Positions 46,156 to 55,220 of a stretch of DNA of 55,220 bases are shown piece after piece (within the stretch, counting starts at the first letter, position 1; every line of letters starts with the position of its first letter). A program made the translations under genes and the position numbers. The notes below the pieces were generated by a model. That model worked only from the letters and a program-made list of their open reading frames with translations, made no database searches and was not told the origin of the DNA. Source of the DNA: Fistulifera solaris (lineage: Eukaryota); contig AP026124.1 of the NCBI GenBank assembly GCA_030295235.1, forward strand, positions 2,418,001 to 2,473,220. The letters are read 5' to 3'.

Positions 46156-46233
46156 AAGACTCGGACCTTTGCCAACCAGTATATAATCTGGAATAAGACT
46201 CGGACCTTTGCCAACCAGTATATAATCTGGAAT
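46156..46233 (+). repeat. Perfect 39-bp tandem duplication
   Basis: AAGACTCGGACCTTTGCCAACCAGTATATAATCTGGAAT x2. Confidence 0.9.
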
Positions 46234-48741: not shown

Positions 48742-49115
48742 TGTGATGGATTGTAAGTTGTAGAGGAAAAGCAAAAGCAAAATTTTTGGCTTGGGCATTT
48801 TTTGTTGAGGTCCTTCAAGACGATGATCATGCGGTGAGAATGAAGAACAATTGGGACATAGAGCCAAGTGGCATCACTCTCTCTAATCCAGTAGTCCGGG
48901 GCCACCGATCGATGATCGATGTCCGTAAAATGACCCTTTCGAATTAGTTAGCACGTGTGCCAGTCCGACGTCAAACGGTATCTTTTTTCCTTTCTCACTT
49001 CCTTCATGACACGATGGTGTCAGCCGTTTTTCCCCTTTCATCGAGATCGGTGATAATCATCCATAAGGATGAGAAAGTCGCGCTTTTCATTGGCATTAAC
49101 CACCTTTTCTCCACC

Positions 49116-49768
49116 ATGAAATATCTGTTACTTACGATACTTTACTGCTGTCGTTTGCTTCTTTTGCCGGCAATGTCATGCGCTTGGACGACGCGTCCTC
49201 TTCCCAGGCCGATAGTCCGAACGCCGATTTTCTTGCCTCGACAGAATCAGCTACCGCGTCGTACATTCACATCGTGTCCAGCAAAAACGAATTCCACAAG
49301 AGATACGGCACGATCATGGATGGGCTTGAGTTTAACGGCCATTCGAGCGACGGCACGGGCTGCTACGGGCATCAGTTTGACGGCAATCTACGCGAGCACT
49401 TTGGCAGCGACGAGTCTCTGGATTCGTCAAACAATGAAATGGATCTTGTCGCTTGTACCCCCGCCGCTGAGATATTTCGCACAACCGTTTCTTGTACTGT
49501 ATTCGCCCCACTGTTTTGGATACGGCAAGTCAGTCACAATGGCGCACGACGGAAACACCAAAAAGGGACGCATGAAGCTCTTCTGGAAGGTTGGAAACAA
49601 GCTGTCGCACAAGCAGATAAAACGGTATCATACTGGCCGATTCATGTTAGTCAAGATGGAGCTCTGGAGTCCGATTTGTCGGAAATGGATGTTTCCGACG
49701 CAATTTCGGAATCGATTGAACTTACTACGACAAACACAAAGATGCTCCATAATTGCCGAACTTCTTGA
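49116..49768 (+). CDS. Hypothetical protein with signal peptide (frameshift ~49500); last unique gene before the telomeric modules
   Basis: MKYLLLTILYCCRLLLLPAMSCAW leader; LSLTAIRATARAATGISLTAIY...PLRYFAQPFLVLY continues as APLFWIRQV...EGWKQAV..ADKTVSYWPIHV. Confidence 0.65.
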
Positions 49769-49919
49769 TGTGTCCCTTTTCAGGGATACTCCTTCCCTAT
49801 TTTTCTGGGTAATATACGGTTTGCTTTTTAATTTATCATCTTTATTTGTGTTTCAATGAAATTCGCTAATTTTTCTTTGTGTAGGATCCGTACTGAATAA
49901 AGAATCTATGGGACACAAA

Positions 49920-50098
49920 TTAGAGTTAGGGTTAGCTCTGGACGTTAGGGTTACGGTTACGGTTAGGGTTAAGAATTTGGAAATTGGGATATGGAACTTG
50001 GAACTTGGAAAAAGGAACTTAGAACTTAGAACTTAGGGTTAGGAATTTGGAAATTGGGATATGGAACTTGGAACTTGGAAAAAGGAACTTAGAACTAG
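49920..50098 (+). repeat. Degenerate interstitial telomere tract plus ~70-bp duplicated unit built from (G/A)GAACTT heptamers
   Basis: TTAGAG TTAGGG TTAG...TTAGGG TTACGG TTACGG TTAGGG (49920-49970), then A(A/G)GAATTTGGAAATTGGGATATGGAACTTGGAACTTGGAAAAAGGAACTTAGAACT x2 separated by TTAGGGTT. Confidence 0.85.
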
Positions 50099-50213
50099 GT
50101 AAATAGGAAGTAGGAACCAGTAACAAGGGAGTAAGGAAGATGGAATAGAAGGAAATGTTGGAAATAAGGGAAAGAAGAAGATTTCATTGGAAATGCAAAT
50201 CAAACTATCAAAA

Positions 50214-50875
50214 TTATTTTGTGCAACAAAGACAACTGCAGTTCTGAGTGGGTGCATTTGGATCCATTTCACAGACTTTGATCAATGTTGTACCAATGTG
50301 AATGGTGTCCTCTTTGTAGAATTGCTGGGTATGATCATAGAGCTTTGTTGTAGTGAGGTGGACAACTGAAGGCGTCATTATGGAAGGCGATTCCTTGCAG
50401 TGCATCCAAAACAAGCTTGATGCAATTGTCAGCGTCGGGGGCATCGTGACAAACTTGGGTGCATTGCTTTTCAATGGACAGGGTTCTCCTGCGTGCCTCA
50501 CCAGGAAATGGTGCTTTGGACGTGGAAAGTAGAACTTGATGGTAATGGTGCAAGGGTTGCCATTGCAGCGAAAGATTCCAGCAGGGGCTTGCTTCAATGC
50601 CTGTTGAAATGCATCACAAAAGGAGTTCTGATTTGTTTTGCTGGGACTGAACATTTTCACCTTTCCATGTGCTTTGTTTGTTGTTGCAAAATTCACGGTA
50701 CTGGGGCCGTGGCTTCCCAGCAATCTGGCAAGTGAAAGAAGCGAAGGTGATCGTTGAACTCAAACTTTGTTGCTGAATTTGGAGGAAAGTAGTACTTTCG
50801 CCTGGTGCGGTTCCTGGATGCTTGGTGCTCTGTTTCCCATGCAAGCCCGGTGCTTACGTCACCTTCCTTTGACAT
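50214..50875 (-). CDS. rusA: RusA-family Holliday junction resolvase (frameshifted)
   Basis: Across frames: FTCQIAGKPRPQYR...KVKMFSPSK...ITIKFYFPRPKHHF...PDADNCIKLVLDALQGIAFHNDA.VVHLTTTKLY, matching the RusA signature D-x-D-N-x-x-K-x-x-x-D-A-L...D-x-x-V. Confidence 0.82.
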
Positions 50876-51009
50876 AGTTGGTTGTTGCTAGACAAATAGT
50901 AAGAGAAAGAGTAAGATAAAATGCATTGAATAGTTATGTAAAAACCGATTACCTAGAGAAATGCAATGTTGGATGTAATATGAAGGAAATGCAAGAAGGA
51001 GAGAACGAA

Positions 51010-51878
51010 TCACGGCTGCTCAGAGGCGTTGTTGTTGGGCAAGACCATCAATTCATTGTTGTCATTCTTGATGGCAATGATCTGTAAGTCATCCTTGTAA
51101 GCCTTTGGAGAAACCAATCAGGGCAAGATAGGACCTGGGCTGCATGTTAATTGTTGTCAACTGGGCGCCATTGAGGCCAAAGTTTTCTGTTTTCTGCACA
51201 AGGAGGTTCTTTGCAGCAAAAACAGGGAAGAGCCTACATTCGGGCAGCCGCAACAAGGGGACTCTGCATGTTGCGAATAAAGACAGTGACATACTCTTGC
51301 TTCAAACTCAAGTAGAACACCTGGCCGTTAGGAAAGACAGGCCCATTTTCCGCCATCCAAGTCATTGCCAGCTTATGTTCCTGCATATCCGCCTCAGGAA
51401 TTGACCACTCAGGAACAAATGCACCAATTTCAATGCTGGAAAAGTTCCCTCCGCAGCACGCTTGATACTGGCGTGGTCCTCCCAGAAAGATGGATTGCTG
51501 ATTTTCTGACCATTCTCGTTGTAGTAAAACTTCGGTCCCATTCGCGACAGTTCAAGGTGGAAATCTTTTGTCGGTTGCCATGAGTGGAGCGAACAGCATA
51601 TTGGCCTTGTAGTTTGTGGCAAAGCTTCTGGAGTTGGGACGGGTCTCATCACGAGGAGCAATGTTTCCAGCATCACGGTGATGGATTCCAATATTTGAAA
51701 GTGCCGTCAAGAAGCAGGATGCAACAACAGCAGAGAAAAGGTCATTGATGGTAGTGCAAACCGATGCAACATCCATCCCAATACCAGCAAGTTCATTGAG
51801 AGCACCATTTGCATAAGCATTGGAGATCTGTTGGTTATCGGGAACATCCCACCGTTGGCGACTCTGCAGCATGGGCAT
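51010..51878 (-). pseudogene. Unknown ~280-aa ORF upstream of and co-oriented with RusA, interrupted by one TGA and frameshifts
   Basis: MPMLQSRQRWDVPDNQQ...DKRFPP*TVANGTEVLLQREW...WMAENGPVFPNGQVFYLSLKQEYVTVFIRN...; reading resumes in frame after the stop. No family recognised. Confidence 0.45.
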
Positions 51879-52483
51879 TAGCCGGCTCCAAAGTGATGTT
51901 TTGAATGCGTGTCAGCACGGATTAAGGATCGGGCCTACGTTGCCGTTGGCATTTGGCCCATAGTGGCTTATGCCGCGCACAATGCAAGGGGAAGGGTTAG
52001 ATCACGAACAACATTCACATGACGATGAGCCTGGGGTGGATTCTCTTCCCCAGCTGCCTCTGGCACCGAAACAGAGAGCTCCAACAGTACCTGTAGGAGC
52101 AACCACGTGATTAGCAGCAGAAATGCCGCCGGTGAAGCAATCTGTTTTCACGGGGAGGGGAAAGCGAGCACAGAACTGGGGTCTTCCTGCTCCATGAGTC
52201 TCTGACAAGCACCACAGAAACATGTCGGATCATTTCGACATGGACAGTGATGAAAGGATAAGTTACCTCAAAGGGAAGGGCGCGGAGCAGAGGACGCCGC
52301 GTGGTGAGGCGGAAGCTGCTCGCTGCTTCTTGTATGGATTGCGAAAGGGTAGCATGGTGGGAAGTTTCAAACAAATGGATGTTCCTTACCTGAATGGATG
52401 GCCGAATGCAGCGATTCTGTTTTTTCTTTTGTGGTACCAATGGATGCACAGCACAGTGCAACACTTCTTGGGGGGCAACAAAT

Positions 52484-52834
52484 GAATAACCAGTTAAGAA
52501 AATTGCTTGGGCATAATCACAAAGAACAAAAATTCTCTATTTGTGAACCAGGTTTTTATGTTAACTGGTAAGTCTGAAATGGATATTATACCAGCCAAGC
52601 AGGAAGTTCAATGTTCCAGTGTTCCTTTGCTTCCCTTTATTTGGCCAACGAATCACCAGTAAAGAAAATTGCTTGGAAGGCAATCAAAAGAACAGAAGAT
52701 TTACTATTTGTCCACCGGGTTTTTATTTCTTAAATGGTAAGTCTGAAGCGGATATAATACCAGCCAAGCAGGCATTGCAATGTTGCAGTGTTTTGTTGGT
52801 TCTCCTTTTTTTGACAAGCGAATTACCAGTGAAA
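52484..52834 (+). repeat. Diverged ~167-bp tandem repeat (2 copies + start of a third)
   Basis: GAAT(A/C/T)ACCAGT starts at 52484, 52650 and 52820; copies share AAGAAAATTGCTTGG, TGGTAAGTCTGAA and ATACCAGCCAAGCAGG. Confidence 0.85.
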
Positions 52835-52869
52835 TTTAATGTCCCGGTGTCCTCTAGCTTCTGTTCTTC

Positions 52870-52897
52870 GGGTTAGGGTTAGGGTTAGGGTTAGGGT
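52870..52897 (+). repeat. Interstitial telomere tract (TTAGGG)4
   Basis: GGG TTAGGG TTAGGG TTAGGG TTAGGG T, directly abutting the 3' end of the retroelement. Confidence 0.95.
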
Positions 52898-54774
52898 GGA
52901 AAAAAGCAGCTATAGGAAGAAATTAAGCTAGAACTACGAAAACCAGCCTGTTGAGACATGTGGGGTGATGGGGAAGATGCAATGAGAATGATGCAGCCAG
53001 AAATGCAAGTGGCAGGTTGCACAAGAGAAGAATGGACTCCAGATGGGAGAGCAGCAGCTCTAATAGAGCAAAAGACCTGAGCCATCCCAGGTGGGTCTGC
53101 TCGCGGAGGGGCTCCATCCCTCGGTCGCGCAGCAACATGCTGACAGACCCGGACCAGTGAGATACTCAGAGGCGATCGTACAAATCCACACCGCGGTGAA
53201 ATGCGATCGCCCCCACTTTTGGACGAAGGCCGAGCCAGGCGTGTGAGACGGCCGTGGCTTGCTTTCGCCCATCAACCATCCACAGAAAAGAGCGAGGGGA
53301 GTAAAGTCTGCGTCGGCGTGCCCTACAGGAGCTCTTCATAGAGGTCCCGCTTCTCACGCTCCTGCTTGGCAAGGACTTTAAAGGGGTCCTGGCCTGAATG
53401 GGATGGGGGGCGTCAGTGTCCGTGACTTTCGGACGTCGAAGATGGTGGTCTTACCCGGGTCCAGAACCCATGGGTAGAGATGTCTCCACGCAACTCCGAA
53501 GCTTCTGCGTCTAAGCCAACAACCGGTGTGTCGCGATAGGTGTTGATTTTGGGTTCATCGCCCGAACCGCACGGGGCTGAAGAGCCTGTGCACAGAGGAC
53601 ATGACTTCCATTTTCAGGTCATCATGTAGCATCGTTACCAGGCCACCCCTTCTTGCACGTTTGGGAGTGCCCGAGAGTGAAGGGTTGCCACACCATCACA
53701 GGTGACTGGTAAACGCGGTCACTGGGAGACCGATGGGATCTGGGGCGGCTGTCGCGGAACTCATCGCGGGAAAGGTCCGTGCCGTTCAGGGTCTGGGGAA
53801 GGACAGAAAGCCAGAGACCTGTGTGTCTGGCTTTAAGGAGAGCAGCGAGTTTCAGCGGGCCCTCCTACTGACAGATCTGCTGGAGCTGGGCAGCATCTGC
53901 AGCCTATCTCTCCCCCCTGCAGTCGCGAGGCACGCTCCCTCGCATCGCGACTGGTGTGCCGCCAACATTCAAGGGAGCGCTTCGAGAGAAGACTGTCACG
54001 AGCGGATTCCGTGATGGAGAGAGAGCTATGGCGTGATTGTGGGCAGCCGTGGAGGTGGGGTTGAGGATCCCAAGGCCTGCAGACTTAACGCTCAGCTTCG
54101 TCAGGAGAGCGCAGTGCATCTCCTAGCGCTTCATTCTCGCCAAGGAGGGCAGGAATGAACTTCTCCCGGATTTCACGCTCCAATGGGGCGAAGGCTTCAC
54201 CGCGGTCGGGAAGCACTCTCTGCAAGTAAAACCACTCAGCCTGGAGTGACTTGCAGAGGCCAGCATATACAGTCTGTGGATACTGCATTGCGGCTTTCGC
54301 CAAACCGCGGACCCCGAAGCACCACGCATCGATCTGTGGCTTAAGCCACTCCAGCTTGATCAATGGGGCTTCCAATGAATCCTCCAGGTAGCGAGCTCCT
54401 GTGGCATACTGAAAGTGAAATGCATAAAGTTGTCGCTGGGCCTGAGCCTGGTGTGCTTCGCGGCAGACCAGGATGCTCTTCCGGTTAGGAAGTAACCACG
54501 GTGGGGGCCAAAGCGCTGCAACAAAAGTGTTGCATTAAAGCAATGCCACGGACACGTTCCATATAACCATATCGTCGAGGCGTACCAGGGCTGAACAACA
54601 TCCTTGGTAGCGGCGCGAATTTGCTGGCGAGTGGTGTAAGAGTGAGACCATACAGGACCATGCTGAGAGGGTCACCTTGGGTGACGCCTTCCGACTCAGT
54701 ATGGTGCAGCGCAGGGCATACGATCGTTGGCGGACAATCAGCACACGCCCGCATGGCATAGCATTGAAAGGCAA
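52898..54774 (-). mobile_element. 5'-truncated non-LTR retrotransposon, CRE/SLACS/MoTeR-like (RT + zinc finger + restriction-like endonuclease), inserted in telomeric repeats
   Basis: Across many frameshifts: EGVTQGDPLSMVLY, PWYA(.)DD, GPHRGYF...KSILV, RYLGGFIG, YPQTVYAGLCKSLQAEWFYLQRV, LSVKSAGLGILNP, TCDG...HSQTCKKGGLV..LHD, LRGDISTHGFW..GKTTIFDVR.TDTDAP, EREKRDLYE, FSVDG. Confidence 0.88.
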
Positions 54775-55220
54775 GGTTAGGGTTAGGGTTAGGGTTAGGG
54801 TTAGGGTTAGGGTAGGGTTAGGGTTAGGGTTAGGGTTAGGGTTAGGGTTAGGGTTAGGGTTAGGGTTAGGGTTAGGGTTAGGGTTAGGGTTAGGGTTAGG
54901 GTTAGGGTTAGGGTTAGGGTTAGGGTTAGGGTTGGGGTTGAGGGTTGGGGTTAGGGTTAGGGTTAGGGTTAGGGTTAGGGTTAGGGTTGGGGTTAGGGTT
55001 AGGGTTAGGGTTAGGGTTAGGGTTAGGGTTAGGGTTAGGGTTGGGGTTGGGGTTAGGGTTAGGGTTAGGGTTAGGGTTAGGGTTAGGGTTAGGGTTAGGG
55101 TTAGGGTTAGGGTTAGGGTTAGGGTTAGGGTTAGGGTTAGGGTTAGGGTTGGGGTTGGGGTTAGGGTTAGGGTTAGGGTTAGGGTTAGGGTTAGGAGTTA
55201 GGGTTAGGGTTAGAGGTTAG
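54775..55220 (+). repeat. Terminal telomere (TTAGGG)n with scattered TTGGGG/TGAGGG variants
   Basis: ~74 hexamers running to the end of the window, G-rich strand pointing to the end. Confidence 0.98.

Follow-up and report, generated by a model that had tools for sequence, protein, structure and literature searches.

How does the end of a diatom chromosome come to carry, beyond its last unique genes, two gene-bearing units bordered by telomere repeats? The question is raised by positions 49920–55220 of a 55,220-nucleotide stretch of Fistulifera solaris DNA (contig AP026124.1, positions 2,418,001 to 2,473,220, assembly GCA_030295235.1; this whole stretch is the window below), where telomere-repeat tracts delimit a proximal module (module 1) with a gene for a putative RusA-type Holliday junction resolvase and a distal module (module 2) with a truncated retroelement. 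An earlier note, made without database searches, had likened this arrangement to the MoTeR arrays of Magnaporthe and suggested that the two modules might form a single telomere-associated system. The explanation that we favour, and that we consider fairly probable when taken as a whole, is that a genuine TTAGGG telomere closes the window and that two additions, unrelated to each other, are stacked behind this telomere; the outer addition would be a dead, 5'-truncated copy of a telomere-targeting retrotransposon of the type that lacks long terminal repeats (non-LTR), encoding a reverse transcriptase (RT) and a C-terminal restriction-like endonuclease, and the inner one a multi-copy subtelomeric cassette comparable to the yeast Y' elements and to telomere-linked helicase (TLH) genes.

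Anatomy of the chromosome end

A search with the two-unit 12-mer TTAGGGTTAGGG, allowing at most one mismatch, gave 74 matches, all on the plus strand and all at or beyond 49920 (shuffles expect 0.07), and TRF reported repeats of period 6 at 49944–49971 (90% matches), of 4.7 copies at 52870–52897 (100%) and of 74 copies at 54775–55220 (96%). Both agree with the earlier note that there are three tracts of one orientation and on where they lie: a degenerate innermost tract (49920–49970, plus strand), composed of TTAGAG, TTAGGG and TTACGG variants with a 7-base interruption and matched by an independent contig with 0 substitutions; a perfect internal tract (52870–52897, plus strand, 4.7 units) with TTCGGG directly before it; and the terminal telomere (54775–55220, plus strand), whose 74 units run to the window end. 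Module 1 occupies 49971–52869 and module 2 occupies 52898–54775. The G-rich strand of the tracts runs 5' to 3' toward the window end, which is the orientation of a right-hand chromosome terminus, and all three recognisable genes are on the minus strand and so read away from the chromosome end, again as had been described. The order along the end is unique DNA, a decayed tract with a satellite, a two-gene cassette, 4.7 telomere repeats, the truncated retroelement and the telomere, and the earlier proposal that the end grew stepwise on former telomeres is a reasonable reading of this layout.

The distal module

Module 2 has a G+C (GC) content of 56–59%, against about 44% in the preceding 10 kb, and its minus-strand frames, taken together, contain the RT motifs QGDPLS and YA/DD (the latter across a frame change) followed by a long C-terminal region. 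Its longest intact open reading frame (ORF; 54085–54534, minus strand, 149 amino acids, aa) had three longer relatives among 405 candidates: P0001 (1127 aa), which is 73% identical to it; P0002 (779 aa), which carries RVT_1; and P0003, a hypothetical protein whose source name is that of a Thalassiosira species. By tblastn, residues ~562–1127 of P0001 were placed on 54775 to 53063 in three frames, with the C-terminus at 53063, so the retroelement ORF of the window (53063–54775, minus strand) comprises the RT from its QGDPLS/YADD region onward and the endonuclease-like region and is without its 5' half, the break falling exactly at the terminal telomere. Past the stop codon come about 165 bases (52898–53062, minus strand) that make up the 3' untranslated end of the element and abut the internal telomere tract. 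The junctions are clean: AAGG meets TTAGGG at the truncated 5' end, and on the sense strand TTTTTTCC meets ACCCTAA at the 3' end. Through its truncation this copy is dead in any case.

The nature of the element is suggested by its longer relatives. P0001 falls, in the protein atlas, among eukaryotic RVT_1 clusters of 970–1150 aa, and both P0001 and P0002 carry, in order, C-X2-C-X7-H-X3-C-X8-RH[DN], E and RGD-X15-D; the corresponding endonuclease-like region of the window is at about 53430–53700, with pieces of the motif spread over three frames. The pattern given for restriction-like endonucleases (REL) of the SLACS/CRE type is C-X1-3-C-X7-8-H-X3-4-C-X9-10-RHD/N...E...R/KPD-X12-14-D/E, and MoTeR and FoTeR elements have RAD at the R/KPD position (PMC12857005; this and the other papers given by PMC number are cited from extracts). 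Because the predicted fold of P0002, computed from three sequences, was unusable (predicted local distance difference test score, pLDDT, 37), the putative endonuclease of the family is assigned by these motifs. The earlier note's identification of the distal module as a retroelement of the restriction-like-endonuclease kind with a MoTeR layout, to which FoTeR can be added, is supported by the orientation, the 5' truncation, the capping and the repeat tract at the 3' end.

Several results, the failed fold prediction among them, pull the other way and temper this identification. The Pfam match to RVT_1 on P0002 (E 1.5e-6, 28.5 bits) is just under the cut-off of 29.6, and neither P0001 nor P0003 has a Pfam match. 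In the PDB, RT and endonuclease gave no significant match, R2 being returned at E 0.16 and, by profile, LINE-1 ORF2 and R2 at E 0.37–1.7. P0001 and P0002 miss the strict REL pattern three times (X8 for X9-10, RGD for R/KPD, X15 for X12-14), the spacing being off by one residue at two of these places, and the window copy has LHD where its relatives have RHD. The telomere layout, finally, is judged on one copy.

The anatomy of module 2 suggests a way in which it may have arrived. The sense strand of the element is the C-rich strand, so its complementary DNA (cDNA) would have been primed from the 3' end of a G-rich strand, inside a telomere or at its tip. An endonuclease nick (target-primed reverse transcription) or the natural overhang could have supplied this 3' end, and a single copy fits either. 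Synthesis would have halted halfway through the RT, and the truncated end would then have been rejoined to, or re-capped with, TTAGGG repeats from the GG seed at its border.

The second of these priming modes can be taken further, as an addition of module 2 to a natural 3' overhang with no endonuclease cleavage, of the kind proposed for Athena and Coprina, in place of a nick within a telomere array. These Penelope-like elements (PLEs) are endonuclease-deficient and have a PLE-type RT. A 5'-truncated end that faces the telomere and is capped by it, together with a short stretch of repeats at the 3' end, is what such an addition would leave, and these two marks agree with what Gladyshev and Arkhipova reportedly described in 2007. 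The anatomy alone, however, fits both priming modes, the best RT matches (which are not significant) are to LINE-1 and R2, and the retroelement family, unlike Athena and Coprina, carries a CCHC/RHD/RGD endonuclease-like region and so would not be endonuclease-deficient. We therefore consider cleavage-free addition very improbable here and keep to the reading of module 2 as a truncated copy of an endonuclease-bearing, telomere-targeting element.

The proximal module: a RusA-type resolvase gene

Module 1 consists of two co-oriented, intronless minus-strand genes with an intergenic spacer, and the second of them, which lies upstream of the RusA gene and was missed by the earlier note, is described further below. 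The reading of the RusA gene (50217–50875, minus strand) is spread over three or more frames of the window, and independent contigs differ from the window by insertions and deletions (indels) at or near the frame switches. Its assignment agrees with what had been noticed from the letters and comes from several directions. Pfam matched RusA on the window ORF at 50335–50613 (minus strand; E 5.6e-7, at 30.6 bits where the curated cut-off is 22.8), and consecutive parts of the PHROG 140 profile were matched in two different frames of the gene. The family around it comprises eight proteins (P0004–P0011) of 146–232 aa and 48–68% identity, all eight with PF05866. The critical residues of E. coli RusA are D70, D72, K76 and D90 (PMC1636454), and the corresponding D-x-D-x3-K-x13-D spacing is found in seven of the eight relatives, in the window copy and in two metagenome contigs, L001 and L002. 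By these residues the window gene would encode a divergent but catalytically complete RusA-type resolvase.

The lone relative without the catalytic spacing is P0009, whose gene model departs from the frame of the family. Compared with the window at 50285–50395, this 180-aa NCBI model exits the RusA frame just past DIDNCVKLV and finishes with a 27-aa tail, for which the window has a match of 78% identity in a different frame; a splicing error or a frameshift at this spot is the probable cause in the deposited model.

With the RusA of E. coli and lambdoid phages (PF05866) the window gene is linked by its Pfam and PHROG matches and by equal distances between the four critical residues; unlike these, the window gene is eukaryotic and nuclear-encoded, and it is divergent, with the N-terminal extension of about 70 aa and the cysteine-rich C-terminal tail that mark the family. 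The family profile found no PDB chain at E ≤ 1. A scan of the viral collection with the RusA alignment yielded 72 loci, all of them distant RusA (25–34% identity over the longer matches, the best at 30–34%), and the same scan of the metagenomes yielded 138 stretches that encode a relative, with L001 and L002 the only full-length family members among the 80 loci retained. None of 152 RusA-relative loci, metagenome and viral, contained (TTAGGG)3. Within the library searched, we found no subtelomeric, algal or diatom RusA in the literature.

The partner gene

The second gene of the cassette (51025–52355, minus strand) would encode a protein of about 440 aa with a predicted OB-fold in its C-terminal domain. 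It was recognised from the ORF at 51552–51911 (minus strand), which led to P0012 (446 aa, 85% identical) and P0013 (433 aa); P0012 maps collinearly onto 52355 to 51025, intronless and in three frames, the gene being frameshifted in the assembly. Exhaustive searching found 131 representatives of the partner family at E ≤ 0.001, of which 74 remained at 1e-10 and 34 at 1e-30, and a C-terminal domain of about 260 aa is common to these representatives. Annotation was scarce: none of 78 family members matched Pfam at E ≤ 0.001, the partner protein had no significant PHROGs or PDB sequence match and no usable match in the protein atlas, and a pattern scan of the viral and prokaryotic collections found no relative of the family.

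A structural model offered a lead. The AlphaFold model, built on an alignment of 78 sequences, had a mean pLDDT of 83, with values above 90 over most of residues 120–440. The best Foldseek rows for this model were to SSB, RPA70, human SSB1, Pot1 and Oxytricha TEBP (E 0.026–0.5), and in the best 50 rows of a VIA-align comparison with 48,161 chains there were OB-fold nucleic-acid binders only, among them Teb1, RPA70, Pot1, CST, SSB, PriB, MCM and HIN, at Z values of 4.9–6.7 that, being below 8, are moderate and may reflect only a common arrangement. That caveat is to be set against the assignment, as is the fact that no Foldseek row for the partner model reached E ≤ 0.001. With moderate confidence we conclude that the partner is probably an OB-fold single-stranded DNA (ssDNA) binder, and nothing more specific; for a family of 131 clusters that is without annotation, this likeness provides a lead to function.

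A conserved pair between telomere tracts

The two genes of module 1 recur side by side. In both L001 and L002, which are metagenome contigs of about 1.1–1.3 kb, RusA comes after the end of a partner-family ORF of the same orientation, and bases 1–198 of L002 match the window at 51296–51101. P0012 and P0009, moreover, each come from an NCBI contig of 4379 bases, an equality of size that suggests one shared contig. In sequence terms, RusA and the partner are a conserved gene pair.

Next to the innermost telomere tract the cassette is bordered by a G/A-rich, telomere-like repeat of 70 bp (49963–50116, plus strand; 1.9 copies with 98% matches to 50096, and related 7- and 21-bp repeats to 50116), in which TTAGGGTTAGG and TTAGAAC/TTGGAAC units are embedded (49963–50096). 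The abundance of these parts was gauged by the summed depth of independent contigs in run X1, a figure that is no copy number and a sign of repetition only, which limits what it can lend to a multi-copy reading: it is flat at 18.6–18.7 over unique DNA to 49775 and rises beyond, in keeping with the earlier note's view that unique genes stop at about 49.8 kb, reaches 877 in the bin of the 70-bp satellite (49970–50163, with several alternative continuations as loose ends), and then stands at 59–130 over RusA and most of the partner gene, at 33–39 over 51910–52880, at 87 over the 3' end of the retroelement (bin 52880–53073) and at about 42–44 over the retroelement ORF. These values suggest that both modules are repeated, and the satellite above all. 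The 70-bp repeat is probably a telomere-associated satellite that many ends have in common, its abundance being far above that of either module.

The cassette was also met in a second-organism run (X2), as five pieces (50159–51531) at a depth of 2.5–5, three of them at 95–99% likeness to the window and two at 90–95%, the three pieces from the RusA region having 2–4 substitutions each; neither unique flank nor retroelement was found in this run.

The cassette has a decayed tract and its satellite as proximal neighbours and a short perfect tract as distal neighbour. One would expect such a position if the cassette had formerly been the last unit of an end that healed, or if recombination or break-induced replication had placed a copy of it on a shortened telomere, and its distal border, with TTCGGG ahead of the TTAGGG units, has the look of a healed break. 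For MoTeR arrays, copying from one end to another by either of these routes is documented (PMC7367193), and it would produce this layout as well.

The cassette could be more than a passenger of such copying. The OB-fold protein and the RusA resolvase may themselves form a telomere-associated recombination module, of a kind undescribed in eukaryotes, which would act as a host device for end maintenance or, in a selfish version, place copies of itself on other ends through strand invasion of telomere repeats and junction resolution. Such a role would suit a pair of genes that are conserved together, one with its catalytic residues intact and the other giving a model that resembles ssDNA-binding and telomere-end-binding OB folds, in a multi-copy cassette that lies between telomere tracts at this end and recurs in the run of a second organism without unique flank. 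A fold similarity at Z 5–7 shows no function, however, one genomic context of the cassette is known, and subtelomeres collect unrelated gene families that have no functional link with telomeres. We consider this role unlikely. Were it true, a protein that binds ssDNA or overhangs and a junction resolvase, both encoded in the subtelomere, would help one chromosome end to invade another or would resolve such invasions; the cassette would maintain ends by recombination beside telomerase or would spread selfishly from end to end, and the neighbouring telomere-seeking retroelement would share with it the interstitial telomere tracts as targets. The cassette supplies a concrete protein pair through which recombination-based end maintenance in algae could be examined.

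Are the two modules related?

The earlier note had envisaged an autonomous element accompanied by a non-autonomous partner, as in the Magnaporthe arrays. MoTeR2 and MoTeR1 have 860 bp in common at their 5' ends and 77 bp at their 3' ends (PMC7367193). For modules 1 and 2, blastn returned no match, 43 of 300 shuffles equalled or exceeded the local alignment score of their 3' ends, and for the whole modules 45 of 50 did so; the GC content of module 1 is 40–51%, against 56–59% in module 2. Having no common ends, unlike MoTeR1 and MoTeR2, the modules do not sustain the analogy.

The same comparison bears on the possibility that the RT of module 2 mobilises module 1 in trans, module 1 being then a non-autonomous retroelement. 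The shared orientation, the telomere tracts on both sides and the intronless state of both genes would suit a mobilised element, and the TTCGGG that precedes the TTAGGG units at the distal border of module 1 recalls the TTCGGG(TTTGGG)n found at MoTeR 5' ends (PMC7367193). Besides the lack of an end sequence in common, however, the modules differ in GC content and in depth, and module 1 consists of two separately conserved genes with a spacer, a pair that occurs in L001 and L002 with no RT nearby. Mobilisation in trans is, we believe, distinctly improbable, and the modules are better read as unrelated additions.

Nor did the suggestion that retroelement and resolvase cassette work as one system fare better: a functional link between them is unsupported by any test made. 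The relatives of the cassette in L001 and L002 have neither an RT nearby nor telomere repeats in the 140–170 bases past RusA, on contigs of only 1.1–1.3 kb. The lack of telomere repeats there also counts against our reading of the cassette.

Independent contigs and the quality of the assembly

Independent contigs were compared with the window over 49000–54790; four sequencing runs were listed, none of them RNA and none with half or more of the words of the window. From run X1, 68 contigs were aligned, 25 at 99% likeness or more, 18 at 95–99% and 25 at 90–95%. The contiguity of the end, as the earlier note had described it, was upheld in part. One X1 record spans 49000–50002 with 0 substitutions and 3 gaps, and because of this the passage from unique DNA by way of the degenerate tract into the start of module 1 is real. 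Further out, no listed contig crosses 52861–52903 (the repeat is skipped by the contig tool) or the junction at 54775, and the bin 51716–51909 has zero contig cover, all of which leaves the outer part of the stacked layout on less firm ground.

Over 53006–54625, a length of 1.6 kb, 53 substitutions and 55 gaps separate an X1 contig from the window; in unique DNA the corresponding figures per kb are 0 and 3. The terminal repeats of the assembly are close to raw long-read quality, and ORF calls there are unreliable. When nine positions absent from X1 (mostly in short homopolymers) were removed from 53148–53427, a match in two frames became one stop-free frame of 129 aa that aligns to residues 1004–1127 of P0001 (E 4.7e-36). 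The indels of the independent contigs over 53040–53440 thus restore the frame of the retroelement, so a copy that is open here exists in the organism; likewise, listed indels at 51101 and 51452 coincide with frame switches of the partner gene. Many of the frameshifts are probably assembly indels, or are else private to the window copy. Old pseudogene decay was rejected as their cause, since nine contig-absent positions suffice for an open frame of 129 aa.

The same error density raises the possibility that the stacked layout is partly an artefact, in which a noisy or chimeric read joined a cassette-bearing end to a retroelement-bearing one. That the terminal 5 kb is of poor quality, with the 55 gaps and 53 substitutions just given for module 2, and that the 52861–52903 interval is bridged by no listed contig, both speak for such a join. 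Against it, the junctions are clean and make biological sense, the 3' end of the element meets repeats that are in register, the tracts have a single orientation, and the innermost junction is independently confirmed; poorer polishing of repeats, moreover, would explain the density of errors without chimerism. We regard an artefact of this kind as improbable and hold to two additions stacked on one chromosome end.

Comparison with known telomere-associated elements

In MoTeR1 of Magnaporthe (Pyricularia) oryzae and FoTeR of Fusarium oxysporum, as in the family of module 2, an RT is combined with a C-terminal CCHC/RHD/R-x-D endonuclease-like region. MoTeR and FoTeR elements always have the 5' end closest to the chromosome terminus, the (TTAGGG)n between one element and the next ranges from 0.5 to over 20 units, with 3–7 units at FoTeR 3' junctions, and truncated copies, capped from short in-register seeds, outnumber full ones (PMC12857005, PMC7367193). 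Module 2 likewise has its 5' end facing the terminus and a short TTAGGG tract at its 3' junction (here 4.7 units), and it is 5'-truncated and capped by telomere repeats from a short in-register seed. FoTeRs co-localise with TLH genes (PMC12857005), and module 2, too, resides with a subtelomeric gene for a predicted enzyme of DNA metabolism.

The differences are that the host is an alga and not a fungus, that the module 2 family misses the strict motif spacing and, with respect to MoTeR, that this chromosome end holds no non-autonomous partner with common ends; the variant-repeat 5' terminus of MoTeR is not comparable, as module 2 is truncated there. The endonuclease-bearing clades are five, CRE, R2, R4, NeSL and HERO (PMC4640811), and the retroelement family is likened to MoTeR and FoTeR by layout and motifs, as distinct from a placement in one of these clades by RT phylogeny. 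With that qualification we read the retroelement as a new, algal instance of the strategy of MoTeR and FoTeR.

An extracted list of telomere-targeting elements names SART/TRAS, GilM/GilT, Zepp1, MoTeR1, Tx1-1_ACar and Athena and no diatom element, the hosts given for such endonuclease-bearing retroelements being fungi, insects, Giardia, Chlorella, a lizard and rotifers (PMC10088271). RTE-like non-LTR elements of T. pseudonana are the only ones named in the extract of a diatom survey (PMC2806351), extracts from the diatom long-read genome literature make no mention of end-associated elements, and our literature search found no telomere-targeting endonuclease-bearing retroelement described for diatoms or other stramenopile algae. 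Module 2 would extend this strategy to a new lineage.

The cassette is the more unusual part of this chromosome end, as a nuclear RusA-type resolvase is joined there by a conserved, uncharacterised and putatively OB-fold protein, apparently in several copies. Its only well-known parallel is the subtelomeric helicase genes of the Y' and TLH kind. Yeast Y' elements are multi-copy subtelomeric units that encode proteins of the DNA-recombination and repair type and are bounded by internal telomere repeats. By analogy with them and with TLH genes, module 1 would be a repeated subterminal unit with predicted DNA-transaction proteins, internal telomere repeats at its borders and a plausible spread by recombination. 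Unlike them, it has a cargo of a RusA-type resolvase and an OB-fold protein in place of a RecQ-like helicase, and is only 2.9 kb long. If these predictions hold, a resolvase and an ssDNA binder would represent a different recombination toolkit in the same place.

Minor repeats

Two further repeats were seen in the window. Upstream of the partner gene, a tandem repeat of 169 bp (52478–52830; 2.1 copies, 79% matches) takes up most of the distance from the start of that gene to the internal telomere tract; it may be another subtelomeric repeat or else a promoter region. The unique DNA that precedes the chromosome end contains a perfect 39-bp tandem duplication at 46156–46233 (2.0 copies, 100% matches).

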